From positions 1 to 56,728 of IMG/VR virus record IMGVR_UViG_3300014818_000012: a stretch of 56,728 nucleotides of DNA, one strand, 5' to 3'. Position 1 is the stretch's first letter; every line of letters starts with the position of its first letter. This DNA is from a virus (lineage: Duplodnaviria > Caudoviricetes). Under the pieces are notes generated by a model, which worked only from the letters and a program-made list of their open reading frames with translations, had not been told where the DNA came from and did not search any database. Shown one piece after another: positions 1,898 to 55,905 of the stretch. The translations under genes were made by a program, and so were the position numbers.

Positions 1898-3886
1898 ATG
1901 AAAATTAAAAAAGCTGAACTACTTAGCGCCTTAAAGGCTGACCTAAAAGCTGCAGATGTGCTTAAACGTGATCAAGATGGCGCTATAGCTAAATGGAAAG
2001 CTGAGTACAATGGAGACCCTTATGGTAACGAGAAGAAGGGCAAGTCCGCTATTGTATCTAGGGATATTAAAAAGCAGTCTGAGTGGCAACATGCTACTAT
2101 TGTAGACCCCTTTGTAAGCACTAGTGAAGTTATTAAGTGTGTTCCTATTACCTGGGAAGATGAAGACTCCGCCCGACAAAATGAACTATTACTTAACGCT
2201 CAGTTTTGTCGTAAGTTTGATCGATTCAACTTTATGTCTAAAGCAGTAAAGGTACTTGATCGGGAAGGAACTCTAGTTGTACAAACAGGCTGGGACTACG
2301 AAGATGAAGAAGCTACCACTATAGCAGAAGCAGTAGAGATTACCGCTGAAGGTCTAGAGGTTATTGTAGAGCAAGAAGTTACAGAAACTATAATTAAGAA
2401 AAACCAACCAACAGCTAAAGTATGCCGTAACGAAGATGTCTATATTGACCCTACTTGCCAAGACAACCTAGATAACGCACAGTTCGTTATTCATAGATAT
2501 GAAACAGACTTGTCGTCACTTAAGAAAGATGGACGATACAAAAATTTAGATCAGGTAGCCAAGGTTGGTCGTGAAGACTTTGACTATGAGTCGCCCGATG
2601 ATACTGAATTCAGATTCAGTGACGAACCACGCAAGAAGATGGTGGTTTATGAGTACTGGGGCAACTATGATGTAAATGACGATGGTATTGCTGAGCCTAT
2701 TGTATGTGCTTGGATTAACGATGTAATTATTCGTTTACAGTCAAACCCTTACCCTGACGGAAAGCCTCCGTTTATTGTTGTACCTTTTAATAGTATACCT
2801 TTCCAAATTCACGGTGAAGCTAATGCAGAGTTAATTGGGGACAACCAGAAAGTTAAAACCGCCATAATTCGTGGTATTATCGACAACATGTCCCAGTCAA
2901 ATAATGGACAAGTAGCTATCCGTAAAGGCGCACTAGACCAAGTAAACCGCAAGAAGTTCTTAGCAGGTAACAACTTTGAGTTTAACGGTACCCCTAACGA
3001 CTTCTGGCAAGGCAGCTACAACTCTATTCCTGGTTCAGCTTTCGATATGATTGGTTTAATGAACAACGAAATTGAGTCTATTACAGGAACTAAGTCATTT
3101 AGCGGTGGTATTAACTCAGGAAGCCTGGGAGCTACGGCCACGGGTGCTAGAGGTGCTATGGATGCTACTGCAACAAGACGTATGAACATGGTACGTAATA
3201 TTGCAGAGAACCTAGTTAAACCGCTTATTCGTAAATGGATGTCATATAACTCAGAATTCTTAGAAGACGAAGAAGTAGTACGAGTAACTAATACAGAATT
3301 TGTTCCAGTACGTCGTGACGACTTAGACGGACGAATTGACCTAGATATTAGTATATCTACTGCTGAAGATAACGCAGCTAAATCCCAAGAATTATCCTTC
3401 TTGTTACAGACCTTGGGCCCTAATGAGGACCCTACTATTCGCCGTACGATTATGGCAGATATTATGGAACTTATGCGTATGCCAGACCAAGCTAAGCGTG
3501 TTCGTGACTTCAAACCAGAGCCAGATCCGGTACAGGAACAGTTTAAGAAACTTGAGTTAGAGCGTCTTATTCTTGAGAATGAAAAGGTTAAAGCGGAGAT
3601 TATGGATAGAAAAGCTCGTGCAAACGAAAACACTATTGATGCTCAACTTAAGATGAACAAAGCAGCGGTTGAAGCAGCTAAAGCTCGTAAGTTAACTAGC
3701 GAAGCTGATATGACTGACCTTAGGTTTATTAAAGAAGACGAAGGCTACTCTCACTTAGAACGTGTGGAGTTGGAAGACCTTAAGCATACTCAACGTATGC
3801 AATCAACGTCTCTTAAGCATAAAGCTAACCTTGAACAGATGATGGCTCAGCAGTTAGCTGGCGATACAAATATTGGAGTAATATAA
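1898..3886 (+). CDS. Portal protein (N4-like)
   Basis: 662 aa; IKKQSEWQ, IDPTC, YEYWG and TGTKSFSGG motifs recalled from N4-like portals; precedes scaffold and capsid genes. Confidence 0.9.
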   Translation: MKIKKAELLSALKADLKAADVLKRDQDGAIAKWKAEYNGDPYGNEKKGKSAIVSRDIKKQSEWQHATIVDPFVSTSEVIKCVPITWEDEDSARQNELLLNAQFCRKFDRFNFMSKAVKVLDREGTLVVQTGWDYEDEEATTIAEAVEITAEGLEVIVEQEVTETIIKKNQPTAKVCRNEDVYIDPTCQDNLDNAQFVIHRYETDLSSLKKDGRYKNLDQVAKVGREDFDYESPDDTEFRFSDEPRKKMVVYEYWGNYDVNDDGIAEPIVCAWINDVIIRLQSNPYPDGKPPFIVVPFNSIPFQIHGEANAELIGDNQKVKTAIIRGIIDNMSQSNNGQVAIRKGALDQVNRKKFLAGNNFEFNGTPNDFWQGSYNSIPGSAFDMIGLMNNEIESITGTKSFSGGINSGSLGATATGARGAMDATATRRMNMVRNIAENLVKPLIRKWMSYNSEFLEDEEVVRVTNTEFVPVRRDDLDGRIDLDISISTAEDNAAKSQELSFLLQTLGPNEDPTIRRTIMADIMELMRMPDQAKRVRDFKPEPDPVQEQFKKLELERLILENEKVKAEIMDRKARANENTIDAQLKMNKAAVEAAKARKLTSEADMTDLRFIKEDEGYSHLERVELEDLKHTQRMQSTSLKHKANLEQMMAQQLAGDTNIGVI

Positions 3887-37433: not shown

Positions 37434-39287
37434 TTAATCGGGTTTTGTCTTTTTAGTCTTTAGCTCTTGTAGTACTTTTTTAACTTCAGTAACAGAAGCC
37501 TTATTTGGTACCCTAAGCATTTCTGCCCAGTTGTACCCGATGTCACTTTCAGCTTCATTTTTAATGGTTTGGTTTTCCATAAAATCAACCAGCATCGCAT
37601 CGATTAAGTTATCATTAACCCATTTAATAACTTCAGCATCTTCAGTTATCTCAAAGTATATAGAGTCATAAATAGTTGATACAACCTTAACATCTTCCTG
37701 GTACCCCATTTGGTCTATCCGCTGATGCATCTTGTTTATAGTCAACGCAGTCAGTATAGACCAGAACTGGCAAGTAGCATTAGCTAGTGTTCTGATGTCC
37801 CTATCAGGGTCATCTGTTTTTAGCATAAAACCAAGCCCTAGGTGAATCTCACCTTGCCTCTTAGCTGTCGGCAGTACGTAGTTTTCACGGTAGTCCGTAA
37901 TCCCTGGGTACAGTACGTTATGGTAGTTGTTAAAGATATCTTCTGCATCCTCTAAAGGAATTTTAAGGGTAGCTGCAATTTTAGGCGGGAAAGCCCCATA
38001 AGCTAAGCCAAATGTAGGCCCTTTTGAGTCTTGCCTAATTTCCCCTGCAGCTACATTCCCTTCGTCTACCAGCTTTTTAAAGTTAGCAGCATCCGTAGAA
38101 GTATTACCTGTAAGAGGCATAAGAGCTTTAATCTTGTTATAAAAGTACCCTAAGGCATTTAGTGAATGTCCATCTAAGTTCTTTAGGAAGATATCACATT
38201 TGTTAGTATCTCTAGAAAGAGATGCTATTACCCGGTCTTCTAGTGCACTGTAATCTGCCGTCAGTATAACTTTACCCGCTGGTGCCGTAAAGCACTTTTT
38301 CACAGGCTTAGCAAACCTAGATCCTGTGGACGGAGTATTAAGCATGTTAGGGTTGCTACTTGTGTAGCGCCCTGACTTGGCTCCCAGTAGTTTATACTGC
38401 CCGTACAGTCTACCATCAACTGAGTAGTTATAAAAAGCTTCTATGAAGTTATTTTTAATGATAGCAGCAAAGGAGTAGTCAATAAAGCACTGAGTAAAAT
38501 GTTTTACCTCTGTGTCATGAGTTTCTATATGTACTCTTTCTACTTGGCTACGATCCCACTTAGGTAGTCCTGTAGTCTTAGACACGTTCTCTGAAGGTAT
38601 GTCTAACATACTAAATAGCTCCTGCTTTTGTACTGGAGATCCGGGGTTAAACATAGGGTACTCTACGGAAGGTTTTTTAACTTGCGCTAAAAACTTCTCA
38701 TTGTACATCTTAGCTTTGTCTTTAGCCAGCTTTGCCATAGCCAACCCAATAGTAGGGTTACTACTAGGTAGTGTCCCTGCTAGCAGGTTCTGGAGCACCC
38801 TATTAGTCTTAGCATACTTTTTAACAAGGTTCGCTGGCCACTTACTAACACCTGTAGGTAGCTTATCTTCAGGGTTACCCCATCCTTGTAGCTTGGCATA
38901 CTCATGCATAAAGTAACTTCTGTGTGCCATATCATTGTATTTAAAGGACCCTAGGTAGTGTTCAGGCTTACGCATTTTGTCTTTTCTGTCTTTAACATAA
39001 GCGTTTACTTGGGCAGAGTACCTGTCCTCAAGATAGTTATTTATTAAAGGGTTAGCCGCCAGCTCACTCTTAACCTCTGCAAGTTGCTCTGCCAGCACCA
39101 CCTCCAGCTCAATTACTTTATCTATATCGATGTGTAAACCATTATCCATTATACGTACAGTATCTTTAATAAGGTGTTTGGCAGTATTTTCATAAAAATA
39201 CCCTGGAGCATATACCTTTTCTTTTGGCTCTGTGCCAGGCAATTGGTCATGAGGGCTATAGTTATTTGTGGTTATTGACAAAGTCAT
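37434..39287 (-). CDS. Family A DNA polymerase, polymerase domain
   Basis: SGRYTSSNPN; motif A DYSALEDR; motif B RQDSKGPTFGLAYG; motif C IYDS. Confidence 0.93.
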   Translation of the reverse strand: MTLSITTNNYSPHDQLPGTEPKEKVYAPGYFYENTAKHLIKDTVRIMDNGLHIDIDKVIELEVVLAEQLAEVKSELAANPLINNYLEDRYSAQVNAYVKDRKDKMRKPEHYLGSFKYNDMAHRSYFMHEYAKLQGWGNPEDKLPTGVSKWPANLVKKYAKTNRVLQNLLAGTLPSSNPTIGLAMAKLAKDKAKMYNEKFLAQVKKPSVEYPMFNPGSPVQKQELFSMLDIPSENVSKTTGLPKWDRSQVERVHIETHDTEVKHFTQCFIDYSFAAIIKNNFIEAFYNYSVDGRLYGQYKLLGAKSGRYTSSNPNMLNTPSTGSRFAKPVKKCFTAPAGKVILTADYSALEDRVIASLSRDTNKCDIFLKNLDGHSLNALGYFYNKIKALMPLTGNTSTDAANFKKLVDEGNVAAGEIRQDSKGPTFGLAYGAFPPKIAATLKIPLEDAEDIFNNYHNVLYPGITDYRENYVLPTAKRQGEIHLGLGFMLKTDDPDRDIRTLANATCQFWSILTALTINKMHQRIDQMGYQEDVKVVSTIYDSIYFEITEDAEVIKWVNDNLIDAMLVDFMENQTIKNEAESDIGYNWAEMLRVPNKASVTEVKKVLQELKTKKTKPD

Positions 39288-39924
39288 TTAAGTATCCCCA
39301 TAGTTTGTAGGTAGCACATGCATCAATAGCTGCGTATTTTAGTACATGCTCTTCATACTGCTGCGCTATAGTAAAGTTATCCACAGATATCGCCCAGTCC
39401 CCATACCACTGTCCTGCCAAGTCTTTTAACCTAGTGCTAGCTTTAAAGACTTCTACATGGTTAATTAGGGTTTTAGCAAATACTTGGGTGTCTTCTACGT
39501 TTTTAGCATTTTTGTTTGCATAGTAACTTAGAAATCTACCATCGTAACTATAGTTATGCCATACTTGTGTTCTGTCGGTCTCTACTAAAAAATTTAGTAC
39601 TACATCAGCAATAGCTTGGCCATCAATAATAAACACATAAGCATTTCTTTCGTCATAGGCAATACTACAATGAGTAATGGTACAATGGGAAGGGTGTCCT
39701 AGTGCTGTGGCTTTAGCTATGGCCTGGTACACTACACGTTCTTTTTTAGGTAAGGTTACGTCTACCATTTTTTCTTTAGCATCTGCTACAAACTCTTTAG
39801 TGTAACGAACGGCAGTCTCAAAGTCAGCAGCAAAAGTACTTGGTAACCCATCTAGCCACTGTTTAGCAACTGCTGGGTCGTTTGTACTTTGGTACTGTAC
39901 TTCAATGCTATGCGTAACTTGCAT
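39262..39924 (-). CDS. 3'-5' exonuclease domain of the DNA polymerase as a separate gene
   Basis: Exo I DFET, Exo II HNYSYD, Exo III YAAID. Confidence 0.88.
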   Translation of the reverse strand: MQVTHSIEVQYQSTNDPAVAKQWLDGLPSTFAADFETAVRYTKEFVADAKEKMVDVTLPKKERVVYQAIAKATALGHPSHCTITHCSIAYDERNAYVFIIDGQAIADVVLNFLVETDRTQVWHNYSYDGRFLSYYANKNAKNVEDTQVFAKTLINHVEVFKASTRLKDLAGQWYGDWAISVDNFTIAQQYEEHVLKYAAIDACATYKLWGYLNDFVNNHK

Positions 39925-52108: not shown

Positions 52109-53410
52109 TTAACCTCGTTTTAATGATACTATCTTTAAGAATAGTGCTTTATTGTTATGTACTCTGTCAAGTTTAGCTAACTTGGCATATAGTGCTATGT
52201 CACTGCTTTGCATAGACTTAAGGGTGGCAGCTAGGTTTTCTAGAGGTAAGGAATATAAGTAGACTAGCATAGGCAAGCACTCCTCATCGGATTTTCCTTT
52301 ACCTAGGTACTCCGCTATAAATGTTTCGGCATACTCAAGTTTTTTAATAGCATCTACATCTTTCATTACTACTGCTATACCATCTGCAGTATCCTGAATA
52401 GGTGCGTCTTTATTTTTCTTAACAGCAGCTTTCACTAGTTTACGTAGTGTTTGGTAGTTCATACCAGATCCATAGGATGTATAAAACATAATAAACTGAG
52501 CGGCTAGTGAAGAACCTACCGTACCTTTAATGTAGTGGCTCATAATGTCTTTTGGTGTGTCTTCTAATCTATCTATGTAGTTAGCTAACCTAGTCCAGGA
52601 TCTTGGTGAGGCTCCTTTACTTCCATCTTTAGGCTCAAAGTGGAACTTGCTTTGATTCTCTATAAGAAAATCAATAACGACTTGGCTAACCTTATTTTCT
52701 TTAGCCCAACGTGTCCAAATTTTAAGGTCTGGAGTAACTTCACAGTCTACGAAACGGTCTAACAACGCTGGATCAAATTCCTGTACTGTGTAGGCACCGT
52801 CTGCTGGGTTAACAGCAGCTACCACAAGCGTTTCCTGCCCTCTAACTAGAGGTAACTCATGTGAGTGTAGTTTATGGTCTAATATTAGTTGTAGTGATGC
52901 ATTTAGTATGTCTGAAGGAGCACGATTAAACTCATCAAGAAAAAGAACTGAACGACGACTGTCTAAGTTACGTACATTATCTTGACGTAGTATTTGAAGT
53001 CTGTCATTAGGTAACTTGTAAAATTCACAGTATGCAGTATTTAGACTTTCACGCCCTGAAAACGGGGAAGAGTCTTTTTTTAGTAGGTACTCTTGAAAGT
53101 CTTTATCCATAAACTGTAATCTGTCTAATGTGAATTTTTGTGGCCACGCTGCATTAACAATATTACTATACCAGCTAGGGGCTGCCCACAATGTAGACAT
53201 CATTCCGTTTACACGTTCTGTAACGGGTAATCCTAACATGTCTCCTGTGTCCATCAATGACAGTATGAGTGGCTCGAAGTGCATGTCTTGTTCTTTTGCG
53301 TACTGTGATGCAGACTCTGATTTACCAACACCATGGCGGCCTTTAATAAGGGGCACATGGCCGCATACATCAGCTGCTGCGATGAGGTTTTTAATTTCTG
53401 TGATATTGAT
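52109..53410 (-). CDS. MoxR-like AAA+ ATPase
   Basis: GRHGVGKS, LFLDEFNRA, DPALLDRF and SPRSW motifs; start either ATC 53410 (AAGGAG RBS) or TTG 53440. Confidence 0.88.
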   Translation of the reverse strand: MNITEIKNLIAAADVCGHVPLIKGRHGVGKSESASQYAKEQDMHFEPLILSLMDTGDMLGLPVTERVNGMMSTLWAAPSWYSNIVNAAWPQKFTLDRLQFMDKDFQEYLLKKDSSPFSGRESLNTAYCEFYKLPNDRLQILRQDNVRNLDSRRSVLFLDEFNRAPSDILNASLQLILDHKLHSHELPLVRGQETLVVAAVNPADGAYTVQEFDPALLDRFVDCEVTPDLKIWTRWAKENKVSQVVIDFLIENQSKFHFEPKDGSKGASPRSWTRLANYIDRLEDTPKDIMSHYIKGTVGSSLAAQFIMFYTSYGSGMNYQTLRKLVKAAVKKNKDAPIQDTADGIAVVMKDVDAIKKLEYAETFIAEYLGKGKSDEECLPMLVYLYSLPLENLAATLKSMQSSDIALYAKLAKLDRVHNNKALFLKIVSLKRG

Positions 53411-53420
53411 AGTATTCTCC

Positions 53421-54110
53421 TTATAGGTATACCCAAGCAAAACCTCCAGCGGTTTTACGGGTACCTTTGCATGTTTGTGTTATGTTTGAATGATTGATGC
53501 TTAACTGTTCAGATGCTTCTTTAGCACTGCTATATATGATACTAGTTTCTATACATTTAACAGGTTTACCCACAGGTGGTCTAAGATTTTTTATTCCGTG
53601 AGTTTTGCCTTTATTTGCTTTGGATATTTTATCTTTGGTAGCGTCAGACATGGAGCTCCCTAGCTTAGCTACGCTCATTTTCTTTTTTGTTTCTTCAGAC
53701 ATTATGTTACCTGTGCTAGCTTCTGAGATTTTTCGTTTAGTTTCTTCAGATACTACTTTACCTGTGTTGCCTAAGCTGATATTTTTTCTGTGCTGTTCAG
53801 GTAAAGTACGTCCTAGCGAAGCTTTACTGTTTCCTCCTCCTATAAGTATGTTCCATCCTATAGCAAATGAAGGTCTATAGTAGTTCTCTTTAGTTTCGCA
53901 GTCTGCGTAATCCCCGCTAAATACTACTTCCCATACAAGATTGTCTGCACCATAAGCTTTTATAGCATTGGCTAGGTGTAAGCATCTTCCTGAAGTTTTG
54001 TGAGAGTTCCAACGCTTTTCTGTATTATTAGTAATTCCCACATAGCCTTCAGAATAAATATCTGTATGGTTTTTCTTATGAATCCAGTAAACAAAGCCTT
54101 GCATAGTCAA
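53421..54110 (-). mobile_element. Free-standing GIY-YIG homing endonuclease gene with NUMOD3 repeats
   Basis: GFVY...YVGIT...R, repeated SEETKRKIS units, C-terminal NUMOD1-like HTH. Confidence 0.9.
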
Positions 54111-54130
54111 ATCCCCAAAGGTAAATGACT

Positions 54131-54158
54131 ATTATAAAGGTTAATTGTCTAAAGTGAA
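54131..54158 (-). promoter_or_regulatory. Promoter in front of the endonuclease gene
   Basis: Minus strand TTCACT-16 nt-TATAAT. Confidence 0.6.
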
Positions 54159-54184
54159 ATCTCTTTGACTTCTTTAATATTCAT
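54149..54184 (-). pseudogene. Orphaned original 5' end of the AAA+ gene (MNIKEVKEISL*)
   Basis: AGAGAG RBS; aligns with INITEIKNL at the present AAA+ start. Confidence 0.65.
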
Positions 54185-54258
54185 AGTAACTCTCTATGTT
54201 AGATTTCTTTGGCGGAGTAAAGGGTGCTAATAGCTAAAAGACTCCGGGAATTATTTGT

Positions 54259-54669
54259 TTACCACCAAGCGCTATAAAGGATATAGTCACCTGATTTTAT
54301 AGCGTCTTTGGCTTCTGCTATCCAAGCTAGGTCTAGTAGTGTACTCTCGTCATCAGGAGGATTGCTGCCAAAAAAGAACCCAGTAGTACTAGGTAATGTA
54401 CCTTCCCTAACTTGTTCTTCTAAGGAATCTAGGTCATGTAAGGTTAAGTTTAGGTCTACGGCATTAAACCCAGCTGCACCATCTGTAAATCCTTTCTTTT
54501 CTGCAATACTAAACATAGCCCCATGTAAATCATGGTGCTTTCTCCAGTACATTACTTCTTCTAAAACTTCATCATTTTTTACAGGTAGGGAGTATCCCTC
54601 ATAATCTTCTGGTACTTCTTCCGATAGCTGCTCTTTTTCAACTCGGTAACTGTACATATCTAAGCCCAT
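54259..54669 (-). CDS. Conserved hypothetical phage protein
   Basis: MGLDMY...YWRK...LH...GFFFG...W pattern; AAGGAG RBS. Confidence 0.8.
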   Translation of the reverse strand: MGLDMYSYRVEKEQLSEEVPEDYEGYSLPVKNDEVLEEVMYWRKHHDLHGAMFSIAEKKGFTDGAAGFNAVDLNLTLHDLDSLEEQVREGTLPSTTGFFFGSNPPDDESTLLDLAWIAEAKDAIKSGDYILYSAWW

Positions 54670-54684
54670 TATGTGCTCCTTATT

Positions 54685-55905
54685 TTAGTTAGTTAATTTT
54701 ATTGCTGTCATTTTACCCTGATTCATATCTTCCATAATTCGCCCTGTTGAATCAACAAGCCATATAACTGGTACCTTCAAAGCATAAAATGCCATAACGT
54801 CTTCTGTTGACAGATATCCGTCTGTTGTTACTACTATGGCGTTGTAAGAAACTTTGTGCTCTTTAAAGGAGTCAATAGCAGGGGATAGGAAAGTACCCCC
54901 CATAGCCTTACGTTCTACAACTTTAGACTTTTTATTAAGTGCCTCTGGAGCAGTAGGGGTTGTGTCTACCTGCACCATTTGAACTGGTGTGTTATAGGTG
55001 TGGCAGATATTTATAATCTCCCCCCATAACTCTTTTAGTGCGGATTCAGAAACTGATCCAGACACATCTGATACAACAGCTAGTTCAAAGATACGATCTT
55101 TAGTCTTGCCTTTAATCCAGTTTGCAAATGGTAAACGTCTATCACGACGCATAAGTGTTTTACGGGTATTAGCTTTTTTATTGCCTACAATTCTACGAAG
55201 TACTTGTTTCCAATTAACTTCTCTACGAATTGTAAGATTCTCAACCATACCTGAATAGTTACTAGGTAGGCTGCCCATACTTTTAATAGTATCATTGGCT
55301 GCTTTCTCTACCATTTTTTTAGTTATTTCAGTTTGTACATACTCGTCCCCTTCGCTTTCTTGCCAAAGGTCATGGTCATCTAAAAGTGCCCCTTTTTCTG
55401 CAACGCTAGAAGAGCCAAACTCTTTATCCCCTAGCCCCTCTTCGGGAGTGTTCTCCAGAAGGTTGTAATAAAACTCTGATGTTTGTTTCCAGTGGTTGTT
55501 AGCCTCAGGGGCAGGATAGTTATCTGGGTATATAACACCTTTAGGTAGATGGCCTCTATCGATTTCTTGGTTAAGAGCACAATCCGCCGCATAGTTAAAC
55601 TTAACGTGGTTAGTGTTTTCATCCTTGCCTCGAAGTATGTGCCCTAAAGCAATATGTAGCATCTCATGCTTTATTACTCCTATACGTTGCTCCAAAGGGA
55701 ACAGCTTGTAGGCATCTAGGTTAATATACAAGTTGTAAGCACCATTAGTAAAGTTAACTCCCATAGGAGCTTTAAGGGTATCGTCAAATACTACCCGGCA
55801 CTGCGACAGCACATGCATGTAAAACACATACTCCTTGTAAAAAGGAGTAGAGGCTATAGACATGTTAGCTACTGCTTCGTCAAAAACGTTACGATCATTA
55901 GACAT
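54685..55905 (-). CDS. Metallopeptidase-vWA domain protein (AAA+ partner)
   Basis: HEMLH, MIDAS DVSGS, GGT and TDG motifs. Confidence 0.88.
   Translation of the reverse strand: MSNDRNVFDEAVANMSIASTPFYKEYVFYMHVLSQCRVVFDDTLKAPMGVNFTNGAYNLYINLDAYKLFPLEQRIGVIKHEMLHIALGHILRGKDENTNHVKFNYAADCALNQEIDRGHLPKGVIYPDNYPAPEANNHWKQTSEFYYNLLENTPEEGLGDKEFGSSSVAEKGALLDDHDLWQESEGDEYVQTEITKKMVEKAANDTIKSMGSLPSNYSGMVENLTIRREVNWKQVLRRIVGNKKANTRKTLMRRDRRLPFANWIKGKTKDRIFELAVVSDVSGSVSESALKELWGEIINICHTYNTPVQMVQVDTTPTAPEALNKKSKVVERKAMGGTFLSPAIDSFKEHKVSYNAIVVTTDGYLSTEDVMAFYALKVPVIWLVDSTGRIMEDMNQGKMTAIKLTN

Follow-up and report, generated by a model that had tools for sequence, protein, structure and literature searches.

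How can a homing endonuclease gene (HEG) lie within the first codons of a phage gene, and from which codon is the interrupted gene then translated? On the usual view, a HEG can reside beside essential sequence only within an intron, an intein, or an intergenic gap. The locus analyzed here raises this question because a HEG is located between two versions of the 5' end of an ATPase gene, and the version joined to the body of the gene has ATC in place of ATG. The whole stretch of DNA analyzed, here referred to as the window, is a 56,728-nt metagenomic contig of a marine phage, and all features described below are on its minus strand. The original prediction held that the HEG had invaded the ATPase gene without splicing and had supplied a replacement start codon, probably ATC.

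The interrupted gene encodes a MoxR-like AAA ATPase

The ATPase open reading frame (ORF) at positions 52109 to 53410 has 433 codons counted from the ATC and encodes the Walker A motif GRHGVGKS. Its product matches PHROG 1297 ("ATPase"; 1.7e-65) and Pfam AAA_5 (2.2e-9, 37.9 bits), with the latter match spanning profile positions 66 to 139 only. Relatives are 40 to 75% identical to the window protein, and the homologue in AD45-P1 is annotated as COG0714, MoxR-like. The AAA_5-type domain, the Walker A motif as read from the sequence, and a VWA-like DUF2201 gene upstream support the assignment of this protein as MoxR-like. The DUF2201 metallopeptidase-like/VWA gene (54685 to 55905; Pfam DUF2201_N, 8.8e-15, and DUF2201, 7e-9) is the immediate upstream neighbor of the ATPase gene in several relatives and adjoins the ATPase start in AD45-P1 and in the related locus L003. 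The HEG element is absent from the AD45-type Alteromonas phages, which are cultured relatives. Between this gene and the native ATPase start, the window has an ORF of 136 aa (54259 to 54669) without a match in Pfam or PHROG and without a homologue among the 20 related loci searched, which we regard as a lineage-specific filler gene. A megablast comparison of the region with 50,697 phage records gave no match.

The endonuclease gene has its own translation signals and a conserved leader

The free-standing HEG at 53421 to 54104 encodes a protein of 227 aa counted from the ATG at 54104, which is preceded at a distance of 7 nt by GGGGA and is the most likely start codon, while the ORF listing gives TTG 54110. 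Its product matches the Pfam families GIY-YIG (PF01541; E 3.2e-6, 27.8 bits versus a cutoff of 22.6) over residues 5 to 77 and NUMOD3 (5.5e-12, 45.8 bits) in two stretches, as well as the I-HmuI NUMOD-like profile (4.3e-7, 29.8 bits) and PHROG 314 ("homing endonuclease"; 1.3e-35). These profile matches identify an N-terminal GIY-YIG catalytic domain and a modular C-terminal DNA-binding region. Using phmmer, we found no match to I-TevI or I-BmoI among PDB chains; the best match was a 66-aa chain (E 0.032) that aligned with the C-terminal module alone. The HEG has its own ribosome-binding site (RBS) and is read in another frame than the ATPase gene, and its stop codon TAA (53423 to 53421) overlaps the Shine-Dalgarno (SD) sequence AAGGAG (53422 to 53417), which ends 6 nt before the ATC and is supplied by the inserted cassette.

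Upstream of the HEG, a noncoding 24-nt block (54123 to 54146) is 100% conserved between the window cassette and a second cassette on the independent IMG/VR contig L005. The block contains TATAAT (54131 to 54136) and the 5' arm of a predicted hairpin. This TATAAT is part of a promoter-like TTCACT-16-TATAAT sequence (54158 to 54131), which has 10 of 12 consensus positions and lies between the HEG and the 11-codon ORF described below. Promoter-like sites are not enriched in the region (8 found versus 5.1 ± 2.4 expected), and the 16-nt promoter core does not recur as a motif in this phage (3 matches at ≤3 mismatches versus 1.9 expected). Because the TATAAT-bearing block is fully conserved between the two cassettes, it is plausible that the cassette has its own promoter, as originally predicted. 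The predicted RNA hairpin AUAGUCA ... UGACUAU (54103 to 54132) would enclose the HEG RBS and take the A and U of the HEG AUG into its stem; it appears in the folds of both cassettes, with 7 bp in the window (segment z, −3.0) and 9 bp in L005 (segment z, +0.9). A second hairpin is tentatively predicted in the 3' end of the HEG (53425 to 53466; core AAAACC-GCUGGA-GGUUUU; −18.9 kcal/mol; z, −1.7), with a core also present in L005.

The 5' end of the ATPase gene is present on both sides of the HEG

As originally described, a segment encoding MNIKEVKEI and preceded by an RBS lies upstream of the HEG, and AAGGAG, a 6-nt spacer, ATC, and codons for INITEIKNL lie downstream of it. These observations are confirmed with three small corrections. 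The upstream segment reads ATG AAT ATT AAA GAA GTC AAA GAG ATT TCA CTT TAG; this ORF (54149 to 54184; ATG at 54184 to 54182) has 11 codons, MNIKEVKEISL*, rather than nine followed by a stop. This orphan mini-ORF is the native ATPase 5' end. It has kept its own RBS, AGAGAG (54190 to 54195), 5 nt upstream, and its N terminus resembles those encoded at HEG-free loci, such as MNIQEVKEL of L003. Downstream of the HEG, ATC followed by AAT ATC ACA GAA ATT AAA AAC CTC opens the ATPase frame, and the segment at 53378 to 53410 (INITEIKNLIA) replaces ATPase codons 1 to 11. With the 4 nt that precede the start codon counted in (TACTATG... versus TACTATC...), the copies agree at 21 of 27 positions, a value reached in none of 200 shuffles; over 27 coding nucleotides alone, the match is 18/27. 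The endonuclease gene is flanked by a duplicated terminal segment, of which the diverged version, borne by the cassette, is continuous with the body of the gene. Since the downstream ORF has its own codons 1 to 11, the upstream 11-codon ORF is redundant, and the window does not have the two nonoverlapping, jointly required fragments of a gene in pieces.

The recoded tract spans 33 to 36 nt in two comparisons. Within its first 33 nt, the downstream copy in the window departs at nine positions from the HEG-free allele of its population, after which the alleles share contigs, in line with the earlier proposal that the element brought a recoded N terminus. Similarly, L005 and L003 match at 24 of the first 36 nt of the ATPase gene and at ~92% of nt 37 to 828.

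Occupied, empty, and decayed alleles occur in nature

Two contigs with the HEG were identified, namely, the window and L005, in which the HEGs are at the same site and 73% identical, while the ATPases are 65% identical. Homology between the two cassettes extends over their full length and takes in the left junction. A tree of the ATPases places L005 beside HEG-free L003 (support, 99/98), a clade of the window and L005 is rejected (AU test, P = 5.9e-9), and the occupied loci do not form one clade. These comparisons support a common origin of the two cassettes and mobility of the element. L005 and the HEG-free locus L081 are ~98% identical across the upstream 95-aa ORF and as far as ATPase nt 26, past which L081 continues as ATPase and L005 as cassette. 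L081 is an empty site, in which the upstream gene of L005 is joined directly to an intact ATPase gene.

Additional alleles were found in metagenome runs from two other studies (X2 and X3), in which the junctions were read from the loose-end letters of contigs, the table of contig joints being empty. In X2, a 94-nt contig joins window positions 54215 to 54162 to 30 letters that match 53387 to 53358 at 27/30 positions. This HEG-free junction runs in frame from 54162 into the ATPase gene and reads MNIKEVKDLIAAADVCGH; as summarized, the HEG-free allele reads MNIKEVKDLIAAAD. It differs from the window at 53378, 53384, and 53386 and in the repeat. An 868-nt contig from the same run is identical to the HEG-containing allele of the window, and the two alleles share flanking contigs there; the differences between them are confined to the insert and the first ~33 nt. 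In X3, a contig joins 53495 to 54199, corresponding to a deletion of 703 nt that retains the SD sequence and the ATC. Presence/absence polymorphism is thus observed both between L005 and the loci L081 and L003 and within X2, where contigs of both types occur together. Runs X8 and X9 contained only short endonuclease pieces or unrelated NUMOD-like pieces, which are uninformative on junctions.

We also scanned IMG/VR for exact patterns. The 24-nt promoter block matched the contig of L005 only. The SD-ATC junction pattern and the 18-nt hairpin core matched 35 and 9 loci, respectively; we rejected these as further occupied alleles and consider them chance matches because none encodes this ATPase or this endonuclease at an E value of 1e-5.

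Comparison with the empty sites demonstrates, at the level of sequence, that the cassette was inserted into the ATPase gene. HEG-free relatives were expected to have a single 5' segment, with the upstream MNIKEVK... version in frame with the ATPase gene, and this is the arrangement in X2 and in L081 compared with L005; a HEG-free locus that keeps both segments was found in 0 of 15 cases. Accordingly, the alleles largely support the original interpretation.

No intron is recognized in the insert

A spliced insert, with the mini-ORF as exon 1, has a precedent in that short N-terminal exons occur beside endonuclease genes in phages, e.g., in the terminase gene of ICP1 as described in PMC10448857. 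Against this reading, an Rfam scan of positions 53200 to 54400 at E values up to 10 detected no group I or group II intron family; the only two matches were to an sRNA and a microRNA family, at 16 to 17 bits versus gathering scores of 66 and 90. Moreover, noncoding sequence is limited to ~45 nt upstream of the HEG ORF with none downstream, and the insert contains a second copy of codons 1 to 9 with its own SD sequence, which splicing would make redundant. We therefore consider splicing very improbable. The proposal of a nonsplicing invasion holds as far as these features indicate, and the lack of an intron family together with the translation signals of the HEG characterize the gene as free standing. 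We also considered a frameshift fusion of endonuclease and ATPase and hopping of ribosomes from the mini-ORF, and dropped both because no signal supports either and an SD sequence comes with the cassette.

ATC occupies the position of the ATPase start codon

The ATC (53408 to 53410) is at the position homologous to the ATG of relatives. ATG is present in each of the 15 HEG-free loci whose 5' end could be read; it aligns with the ATC in 12 of them and lies one codon farther upstream in the other 3. Both HEG-containing contigs have ATC with (A/G)AGGAG 6 nt upstream (GAGGAG in L005). The codon is real DNA and not a read error: it was unchanged in the contigs of X2 and X3, as the read check suggested with the original prediction required, and ATC also occupies this position in L005. 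That the entire structure is an artefact of assembly or sequencing, as might be feared for a metagenomic contig, is negligibly probable given that it recurs in L005 and that contigs of two other studies span the junction and the ATC. None of the 22 runs listed for the sequence was an RNA run.

From the SD spacing and homology in both contigs, we infer that ribosomes start ATPase translation at the ATC. Codons 2 to 14 are conserved in both HEG-containing alleles, which differ there by six synonymous changes versus two replacements (counted by eye in the alignment). In L005, a canonical alternative is absent, in that no in-frame ATG, GTG, or TTG precedes a GTG adjoining the Walker A motif. In the window, such an alternative is present at TTG 53440 (53438 to 53440), which would add 10 residues (MLGYTYKENT). 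The two occupied contigs share one ancestral insertion, and the conservation of ATC may therefore partly reflect inheritance.

The same architecture with an unused ATC is an alternative to be weighed, in which translation would start at TTG 53440 in the window and at ATT or the GTG before Walker A in L005, or the L005 gene would hardly be translated, and ATC would be kept by descent in a single ancestral cassette. It would account for the in-frame TTG with GGAGG nearby and for the poor performance of AUC, which in the Escherichia coli measurements of 10.1101/063800 initiates at 1 to 2% of the level of AUG and yields N-terminal Met. Nevertheless, we judge this alternative unlikely: the GGAGG is only 2 nt upstream of the TTG, which lies inside the predicted stem at the 3' end of the HEG and is TTA in L005; the spacing of SD and ATC is conserved in both contigs; the continued conservation of codons 2 to 18 speaks against initiation at the GTG; and the X3 deletion allele retains SD and ATC. 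A different alternative accepts ATC as the start codon and attributes its maintenance to dosage, or to coupling with ribosomes that terminate at the HEG stop codon 10 nt upstream, rather than to immunity. The position of the HEG stop inside the SD sequence and the identical distance from stop to ATC in both cassettes fit with coupling. However, the X3 allele has lost the HEG start and most of the HEG ORF and still retains the ATC-led ATPase gene, so that coupling cannot be essential, which speaks against obligatory termination-reinitiation; and because all relatives use ATG, low dosage is not the norm in this family. We regard this second alternative as somewhat unlikely.

A model for insertion, immunity, and loss

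The explanation that we favor overall, and consider probable, is a HEG cassette with a replacement ATPase 5' end, an ATC start, and protection based on recoding. A free-standing GIY-YIG/NUMOD3 cassette lies ~23 to 26 nt into a phage gene for a MoxR-like AAA ATPase and contains a short leader (the TATAAT block and the predicted RBS-sequestering hairpin), the HEG ORF, an SD sequence over its stop codon, and diverged codons 1 to ~11. The native first codons remain upstream as the orphan 11-codon ORF, and the ATPase is read from the copy in the cassette; the gene is therefore not spliced, nor is it divided into two parts that each function. The empty sites demonstrate the model to this point. The ATC at the ancestral ATG position would be decoded as Met by initiator tRNA with low efficiency. 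The element would spread by double-strand-break repair between coinfecting phages, and it also decays by deletion, as seen in X3.

Recoding would confer resistance to cleavage: the recoded segment, chiefly through its lack of the G in ATG, would protect the occupied allele from its own enzyme. By analogy with I-TevI and I-BmoI, this enzyme would bind the conserved block coding for IAAADVCGHVP and cut some two turns upstream, close to the start codon. The product of the HEG has no match to I-TevI or I-BmoI in PDB, and this geometry of binding and cleavage is therefore assumed. As reported in the sources cited, I-TevI cuts 23 and 25 nt upstream of its insertion site (PMC2988022), a single G is critical for cleavage by I-BmoI (PMC5009752), and I-BmoI no longer cleaves the occupied allele because of differences that lie upstream of its insertion site (PMC3664794). 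The native copy of the window has a CNNNG motif of the I-TevI type whose last base is the G of ATG (CTATG); this motif is not conserved at the start codon, since most other HEG-free alleles lack it (ATATG, TTATG, and ACATG).

A scan for terminal direct repeats flanking endonuclease genes, in which 69 of 75 loci were scored with one 24-nt window, brings to three the number of unrelated genes with a 5'-replacement design, i.e., the MoxR ATPase gene, a primase-like gene (L074), and a gene for 581 aa (L058). The cassettes in L058 and L074 keep ATG, and ATC is thus not required by the architecture. A broader reading would combine these observations. On this reading, self-protection of the endonuclease would dictate the ATPase start codon, with the G of ATG as the critical GIY-YIG cleavage base ~24 nt upstream of the insertion as in I-TevI, such that occupied alleles must exchange AUG for AUC; and a replacement 5' end with initiation signals would be a recurrent route for free-standing phage endonucleases into coding sequence without intron or intein. 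We offer it tentatively, as a possibility rather than an expectation.

The locus exemplifies a fourth route for HEGs in phages, in which the 5' end of a gene is overwritten by the element's recoded copy with an RBS. Since occupied, empty, and decayed alleles occur naturally in the same populations, invasion, immunity, and loss are open to direct study. The AUC at the start position would be a rare, evolutionarily conserved case whose cause may be a selfish element and not regulation. Gene callers will start such genes incorrectly or truncate them and overlook the orphan mini-ORFs. Systematic searches could use the signature of an endonuclease gene flanked by a terminal direct repeat.

Comparison with known systems

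In the open-access literature searched, we found no description of 5'-end replacement by a phage endonuclease. The closest parallel is provided by the fungal mitochondrial mORFs described in PMC3630166, i.e., in atp6 of Allomyces macrogynus and in atp6, atp9, cox2, and nad3 of Glomus. As in the window, a GIY-YIG or LAGLIDADG gene near the end of a gene brings a diverged foreign terminal copy, and the native copy is orphaned alongside (PMC3630166). In the cases described there, the 3' end is replaced, often with an in-frame fusion and in organelles, whereas the window has a replaced 5' end in a phage gene and ATC; moreover, its orphan native piece keeps an RBS and ATG, unlike the mORF cases of that account (PMC3630166). 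Replacement of the 5' end means that the cassette must also supply translation-initiation signals. All described members of the mORF class have C-terminal replacements, and the window is their 5' mirror image; it would work like this class and is yet no member of it as described.

Among phage elements, the free-standing Seg and Mob genes of T4-type phages share with this locus a GIY-YIG and NUMOD-type free-standing gene, presence/absence polymorphism, and coconversion of flanks ("intronless homing," PMC2988022). For I-TevI, segB, and Aeh1 mobE, a hairpin is reported that covers the RBS and has a promoter at its 5' arm (PMC2988022), an arrangement like that predicted in the window. However, the Seg and Mob genes covered by that source are intergenic and their products cut hundreds of base pairs or more away (PMC2988022), whereas the HEG of the window is inside a coding region with the recoded tract adjoining. 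Free-standing endonuclease genes within coding regions, without intron or intein, are also found in genes in pieces, such as mobE in nrdA of Aeh1, mobA in gene 39/60 of T4, and seg in gene 43 of phage 25 (PMC2988022). There, two polypeptides must reassemble (PMC2988022), while in the window the small fragment has a duplicate in the downstream ORF, which specifies one full-length protein.

I-BmoI and I-TevI resemble the HEG product in being modular GIY-YIG enzymes, and a critical G and upstream differences protect the occupied allele (PMC3664794 and PMC5009752). Both are intron encoded and biochemically characterized in these reports, while the parallel in the window is drawn by analogy, with the third base of the start codon as the candidate G. 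Finally, the AUU start codons of E. coli infC and pcnB, as cited in 10.1101/063800, are like the window codon near-cognate AUH triplets at an SD-led start. These AUU codons are autoregulatory or ancient according to that source, whereas the AUC of the window goes together with the entry of a mobile element into a gene that has AUG in relatives.

An endonuclease gene separates two copies of an ATPase 5' end

The genes of this region of the window all lie on the minus strand. A gene for a DUF2201 metallopeptidase-like/VWA protein (55905-54685) and a 136-aa ORF with no family match (54669-54259) precede an 11-codon mini-ORF (54184-54149; ATG AAT ATT AAA GAA GTC AAA GAG ATT TCA CTT TAG) with AGAGAG upstream. 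After a non-coding stretch of ~45 nt containing TATAAT follows a 227-aa endonuclease ORF (54104-53421) with GIY-YIG, NUMOD3, and I-HmuI-type NUMOD domains (PHROG "homing endonuclease"). Its TAA stop codon is overlapped by AAGGAG, a Shine-Dalgarno (SD) sequence located 6 nt before ATC AAT ATC ACA GAA ATT AAA AAC CTC, the opening of a 433-codon gene for a MoxR-like AAA ATPase (AAA_5; Walker A GRHGVGKS) that ends at 52109 and is followed by the gene for ThyX. The two 5' copies are identical at 21 of 27 positions, including 4 nt ahead of the start codon, and 0 of 200 shuffles were as good. The layout is that of the original prediction, except that the mini-ORF has two extra codons.

The 56.7-kb IMG/VR record is estimated to be 55% complete and contains one copy of this endonuclease, together with an SU10-type portal and a replication module (RNR, family A DNA polymerase, helicase, PhoH, and ThyX). 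The family A DNA polymerase (37434-39924, minus strand) comprises two overlapping ORFs, one for the 3'-5' exonuclease (39924-39262; DNA_pol_A_exo1) and one for the polymerase (39287-37434; DNA_pol_A), which may reflect a genuine split, a frameshift, or a sequence error.

A second occupied allele and empty alleles support an insertion

Among 75 loci returned, only L005, on another contig, has a close homolog of the endonuclease (73% identity), in an arrangement and at a site identical to those in the window. Its mini-ORF (ATG AAC ATC AAT GAA ATC AAA GAC TTT GCA ATT TAA) is followed by a 24-nt block with TATAAT that is 100% identical to that in the window, the endonuclease ORF, and GAGGAG overlapping the TGA stop codon of the latter; 6 nt further, ATC AAT ATC AAT GAA ATC AAA GAC TTA ... 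continues as the ATPase. The two 5' copies in L005 are identical at all but 2 of 26 positions. The two cassettes, i.e., leader, endonuclease ORF, SD, and diverged ATPase copy, can be aligned over their whole length, with the sequence immediately past the upstream copy included, and so stem from a single insertion event ancestral to both.

The nearest named phages, Alteromonas phages vB_AmaP_AD45-P1 to P4, have an ATPase with 49% identity, which in AD45-P1 starts at an ATGA overlapping the DUF2201-type gene and has the N-terminus MNINEAVELIEDAD. A further 18 distinct ATPase loci were obtained by scanning IMG/VR and JGI metagenomes (L083 is the same contig as L003, and L086 the same as L005). 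Leaving out L096 and L098, in which the 5' end is absent, ATG occupies the codon aligned to the window ATC in 12 loci free of the homing endonuclease gene (HEG) (L081, L082, L003, L085, L087-L091, L093, L094, and L097) and lies one codon upstream in three (L084, L092, and L095). Therefore, the ATC is at the ancestral start position. The DUF2201-ATPase junction is a hotspot of small unrelated ORFs (window 54259-54669; L005 2259-2925; upstream regions of L085, L087, L090, and L095): the two genes directly adjoin in AD45-P1, L003, L082, L088, L089, L091, and L093, are separated by the 136-aa ORF in the window and by two ORFs in L005 and L081, and have gaps of 240-440 nt in several other loci.

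The original prediction held that HEG-free relatives would join the MNIKEVK-type 5' end directly to the ATPase, and two empty alleles do so. L081 carries the same two small upstream ORFs as L005, and its DNA is ~98% identical to that of L005 through nt 26 of the ATPase gene; beyond it, the L081 sequence remains that of an intact ATPase (MNINQIKDLIAAAD), and L005 enters the cassette. Directly ahead of the ATPase start, L005 (2638-2925, occupied) and L081 (651-935, empty) share a 95-aa ORF with 99% identity, compared with 65% for the neighboring 131-aa ORF and 70% for the ATPase. The endonuclease junction coincides exactly with the end of a recent exchange tract.

We also compared contigs from four public runs of four studies with window 52900-54800. 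Run X2 contains an 868-nt contig identical to window 53348-54215, i.e., the occupied allele with its ATC, and a 94-nt contig that matches 54215-54162 with one mismatch (exact position not listed), and then has 30 letters matching 53387-53358 at 27/30 (by eye). On the minus strand, the latter reads mini-ORF codons 1-7 plus GA in frame with C TTA ATC GCT GCA ... (MNIKEVKDLIAAADVCGH). Both contigs have the same flanking contigs at both ends (52900-53377 and 54186-54800) and therefore share a near-identical background, in which the alleles differ only by the insert and by 9 positions in the first 33 nt; the downstream copy is thus recoded, as had been proposed. In run X3, a 1,775-nt contig spans 52900-53495 with 6 differences, 0 of them at the ATC, and then matches 54199-54228 at 27/30. 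This 703-nt deletion (window 53496-54198) removes the mini-ORF, the promoter block, and ~200 endonuclease codons and retains the last 75 nt of the endonuclease, the SD, and the ATC. The junctions in both runs were taken from loose-end letters, with which contig sizes and k-mer overlaps agree. X3 also has an intact endonuclease on a separate contig, so that decayed and intact alleles co-exist; the deletion contig has the higher depth of the two, and the depths (12.2 and 7.8 in X2; 16.9 and 4.6 in X3) are whole-contig means that show the presence of both forms only. Together, the empty sites in L081 and X2 and the second occupied allele in L005 support the structural core of the proposed endonuclease invasion.

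The element lies at a mosaic boundary

In an ATPase tree for which the first 12 columns of the alignment were omitted, L005 grouped with HEG-free L003 (support 99/98), and the window was nearest to L081 and L082; a clade of the window and L005 was rejected (AU p 5.9e-9). Between the window and L005, the endonucleases are more similar than the ATPases (73% versus 65%). Comparing the ATPase genes of L005 and L003, the first 36 nt are identical at 24/36 positions and the following 22 windows at 29-36/36; identity is 74% for DUF2201, on the opposite flank, and 88% for ThyX. The element is thus at a mosaic boundary with a short replaced tract of 33-36 nt, as would be expected from double-strand-break repair with co-conversion, the general mechanism outlined in PMC2988022.

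ATC is conserved and probably used as the start codon

The ATC is real and conserved: it is unchanged in the X2 and X3 contigs and also present in L005, which confirms it as true DNA. We reasoned that it would serve as the start codon, which is probable in the window and more probable still in L005. In both lineages, the cassette provides an SD 6 nt before the ATC, and ATPase residues 2-18 are still conserved. Codons 1-14 of the window and L005 have 6 synonymous differences and 2 replacements (by eye), suggesting a translated stretch. Alternatively, the ATPase in the window might start at the in-frame TTG at 53440. However, GGAGG is merely 2 nt from this codon, which lies inside the stem of a predicted hairpin that leaves the SD and ATC unpaired (z -1.7, weak). 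Moreover, the TTG is TTA in L005, where no ATG, GTG, or TTG occurs in frame between the preceding stop codon and the GTG directly before Walker A. In Escherichia coli, AUC supports initiation at 1-2% of the AUG level, with an N-terminal Met (10.1101/063800).

We also reasoned that the G-to-C change at the start codon might protect the occupied allele from its own endonuclease, an idea that is possible if on balance doubtful. The occupied allele rebuilds a continuous gene 5' end and so cannot be identical to the empty one at positions where the enzyme requires a match. This third base of the start codon is the only coding difference that separates both occupied from all empty alleles; further differences lie upstream of the start. 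I-TevI cleavage occurs at CNNNG, 23 and 25 nt ahead of the insertion site (PMC2988022), in I-BmoI the final G alone is critical (PMC5009752), and I-BmoI cleavage of the occupied allele is abolished by differences upstream of the insertion site (PMC3664794). Because the left junction is 23-26 nt into the ATPase gene, an I-TevI-like cut would fall at the start codon, where the window has CTATG in the native and CTATC in the cassette copy. Three points weaken the idea: the corresponding bases in other empty alleles are ATATG, TTATG, or ACATG, the endonuclease has no detectable sequence match to the I-TevI or I-BmoI chains, and only one ancestral cassette is known.

Both cassettes contain a predicted hairpin, AUAGUCA...UGACUAU (7 bp in the window and 9 bp in L005), that would enclose the endonuclease RBS and pair part of its AUG, with TATAAT overlapping the 5' arm; the segment folds better than shuffles in the window only, not in L005. 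This layout is that of I-TevI, segB, and Aeh1 mobE, for which PMC2988022 describes late transcripts that begin within the hairpin and free the RBS. Hairpin-based control of the endonuclease is thus suggested as a resemblance.

Terminal replacement recurs among phage GIY-YIG elements

In 75 related-endonuclease loci, we compared the 200 nt preceding the endonuclease with the surroundings of its stop codon, looking for a 24-nt match; 69 were scored and 6 were at contig ends. Several loci besides L005 scored above all 20 shuffles. In L058 (2433-3200), a mini-ORF (MNKDLTVEQK*) is followed by TATAAATA and a NUMOD3 endonuclease (2512-3180), whose stop codon overlaps the ATG of a 581-aa gene of unassigned family (ATG AAT CGT AAT TTA ACA ...; MNRNLT); the 79 retrieved relatives have the N-terminus (M/L/V)NK(N/D)LT. 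In L074 (2444-3450), an upstream ORF (..RYFKMSVGQENIGKETLVDITARCPICGDS) corresponding to the N-terminus of HEG-free L222 (~34 codons) runs into a SegE-like GIY-YIG gene (2595-3335), and the downstream primase-like gene (Toprim_2) starts with ATG and a different N-terminus of the L223-L225 type, ~35 codons being replaced. By sequence, L058 and L074 represent a second and a third putative example of the 5'-replacement design. In L065 (2400-3310), a 5'-3' exonuclease gene has its final 24 codons (FVFWSTFITIIKKEQNYFKTKKI*) repeated past the stop codon of a NUMOD3 endonuclease with synonymous differences, as also in L066, L067, L070, L071, and L077. L023 has a similar C-terminal repeat (23/24 nt). 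Based on L058, L074, and the L065 family, terminal replacement is recurrent among phage GIY-YIG elements; ATG is kept in L058 and L074, and so the ATC is specific to the ATPase cassette.

In PMC2988022, free-standing phage endonucleases are described as intergenic, and in the three known intragenic cases the host protein is split into two polypeptides; in contrast, the ATPase here is not split. Searches of the literature, subscription journals and paper supplements being outside reach, retrieved no phage case of this arrangement. The nearest described design is that of fungal mitochondria, in which mobile endonuclease ORFs inserted at the 3' ends of atp6, atp9, cox2, or nad3 introduce a foreign C-terminal segment, and the native segment stays behind downstream (PMC3630166). 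The duplication in the L065 family is of this 3' type and resembles the fungal layout, whereas the window element is its 5' mirror image in a phage and, beyond the fungal design, adds an SD and a start codon.
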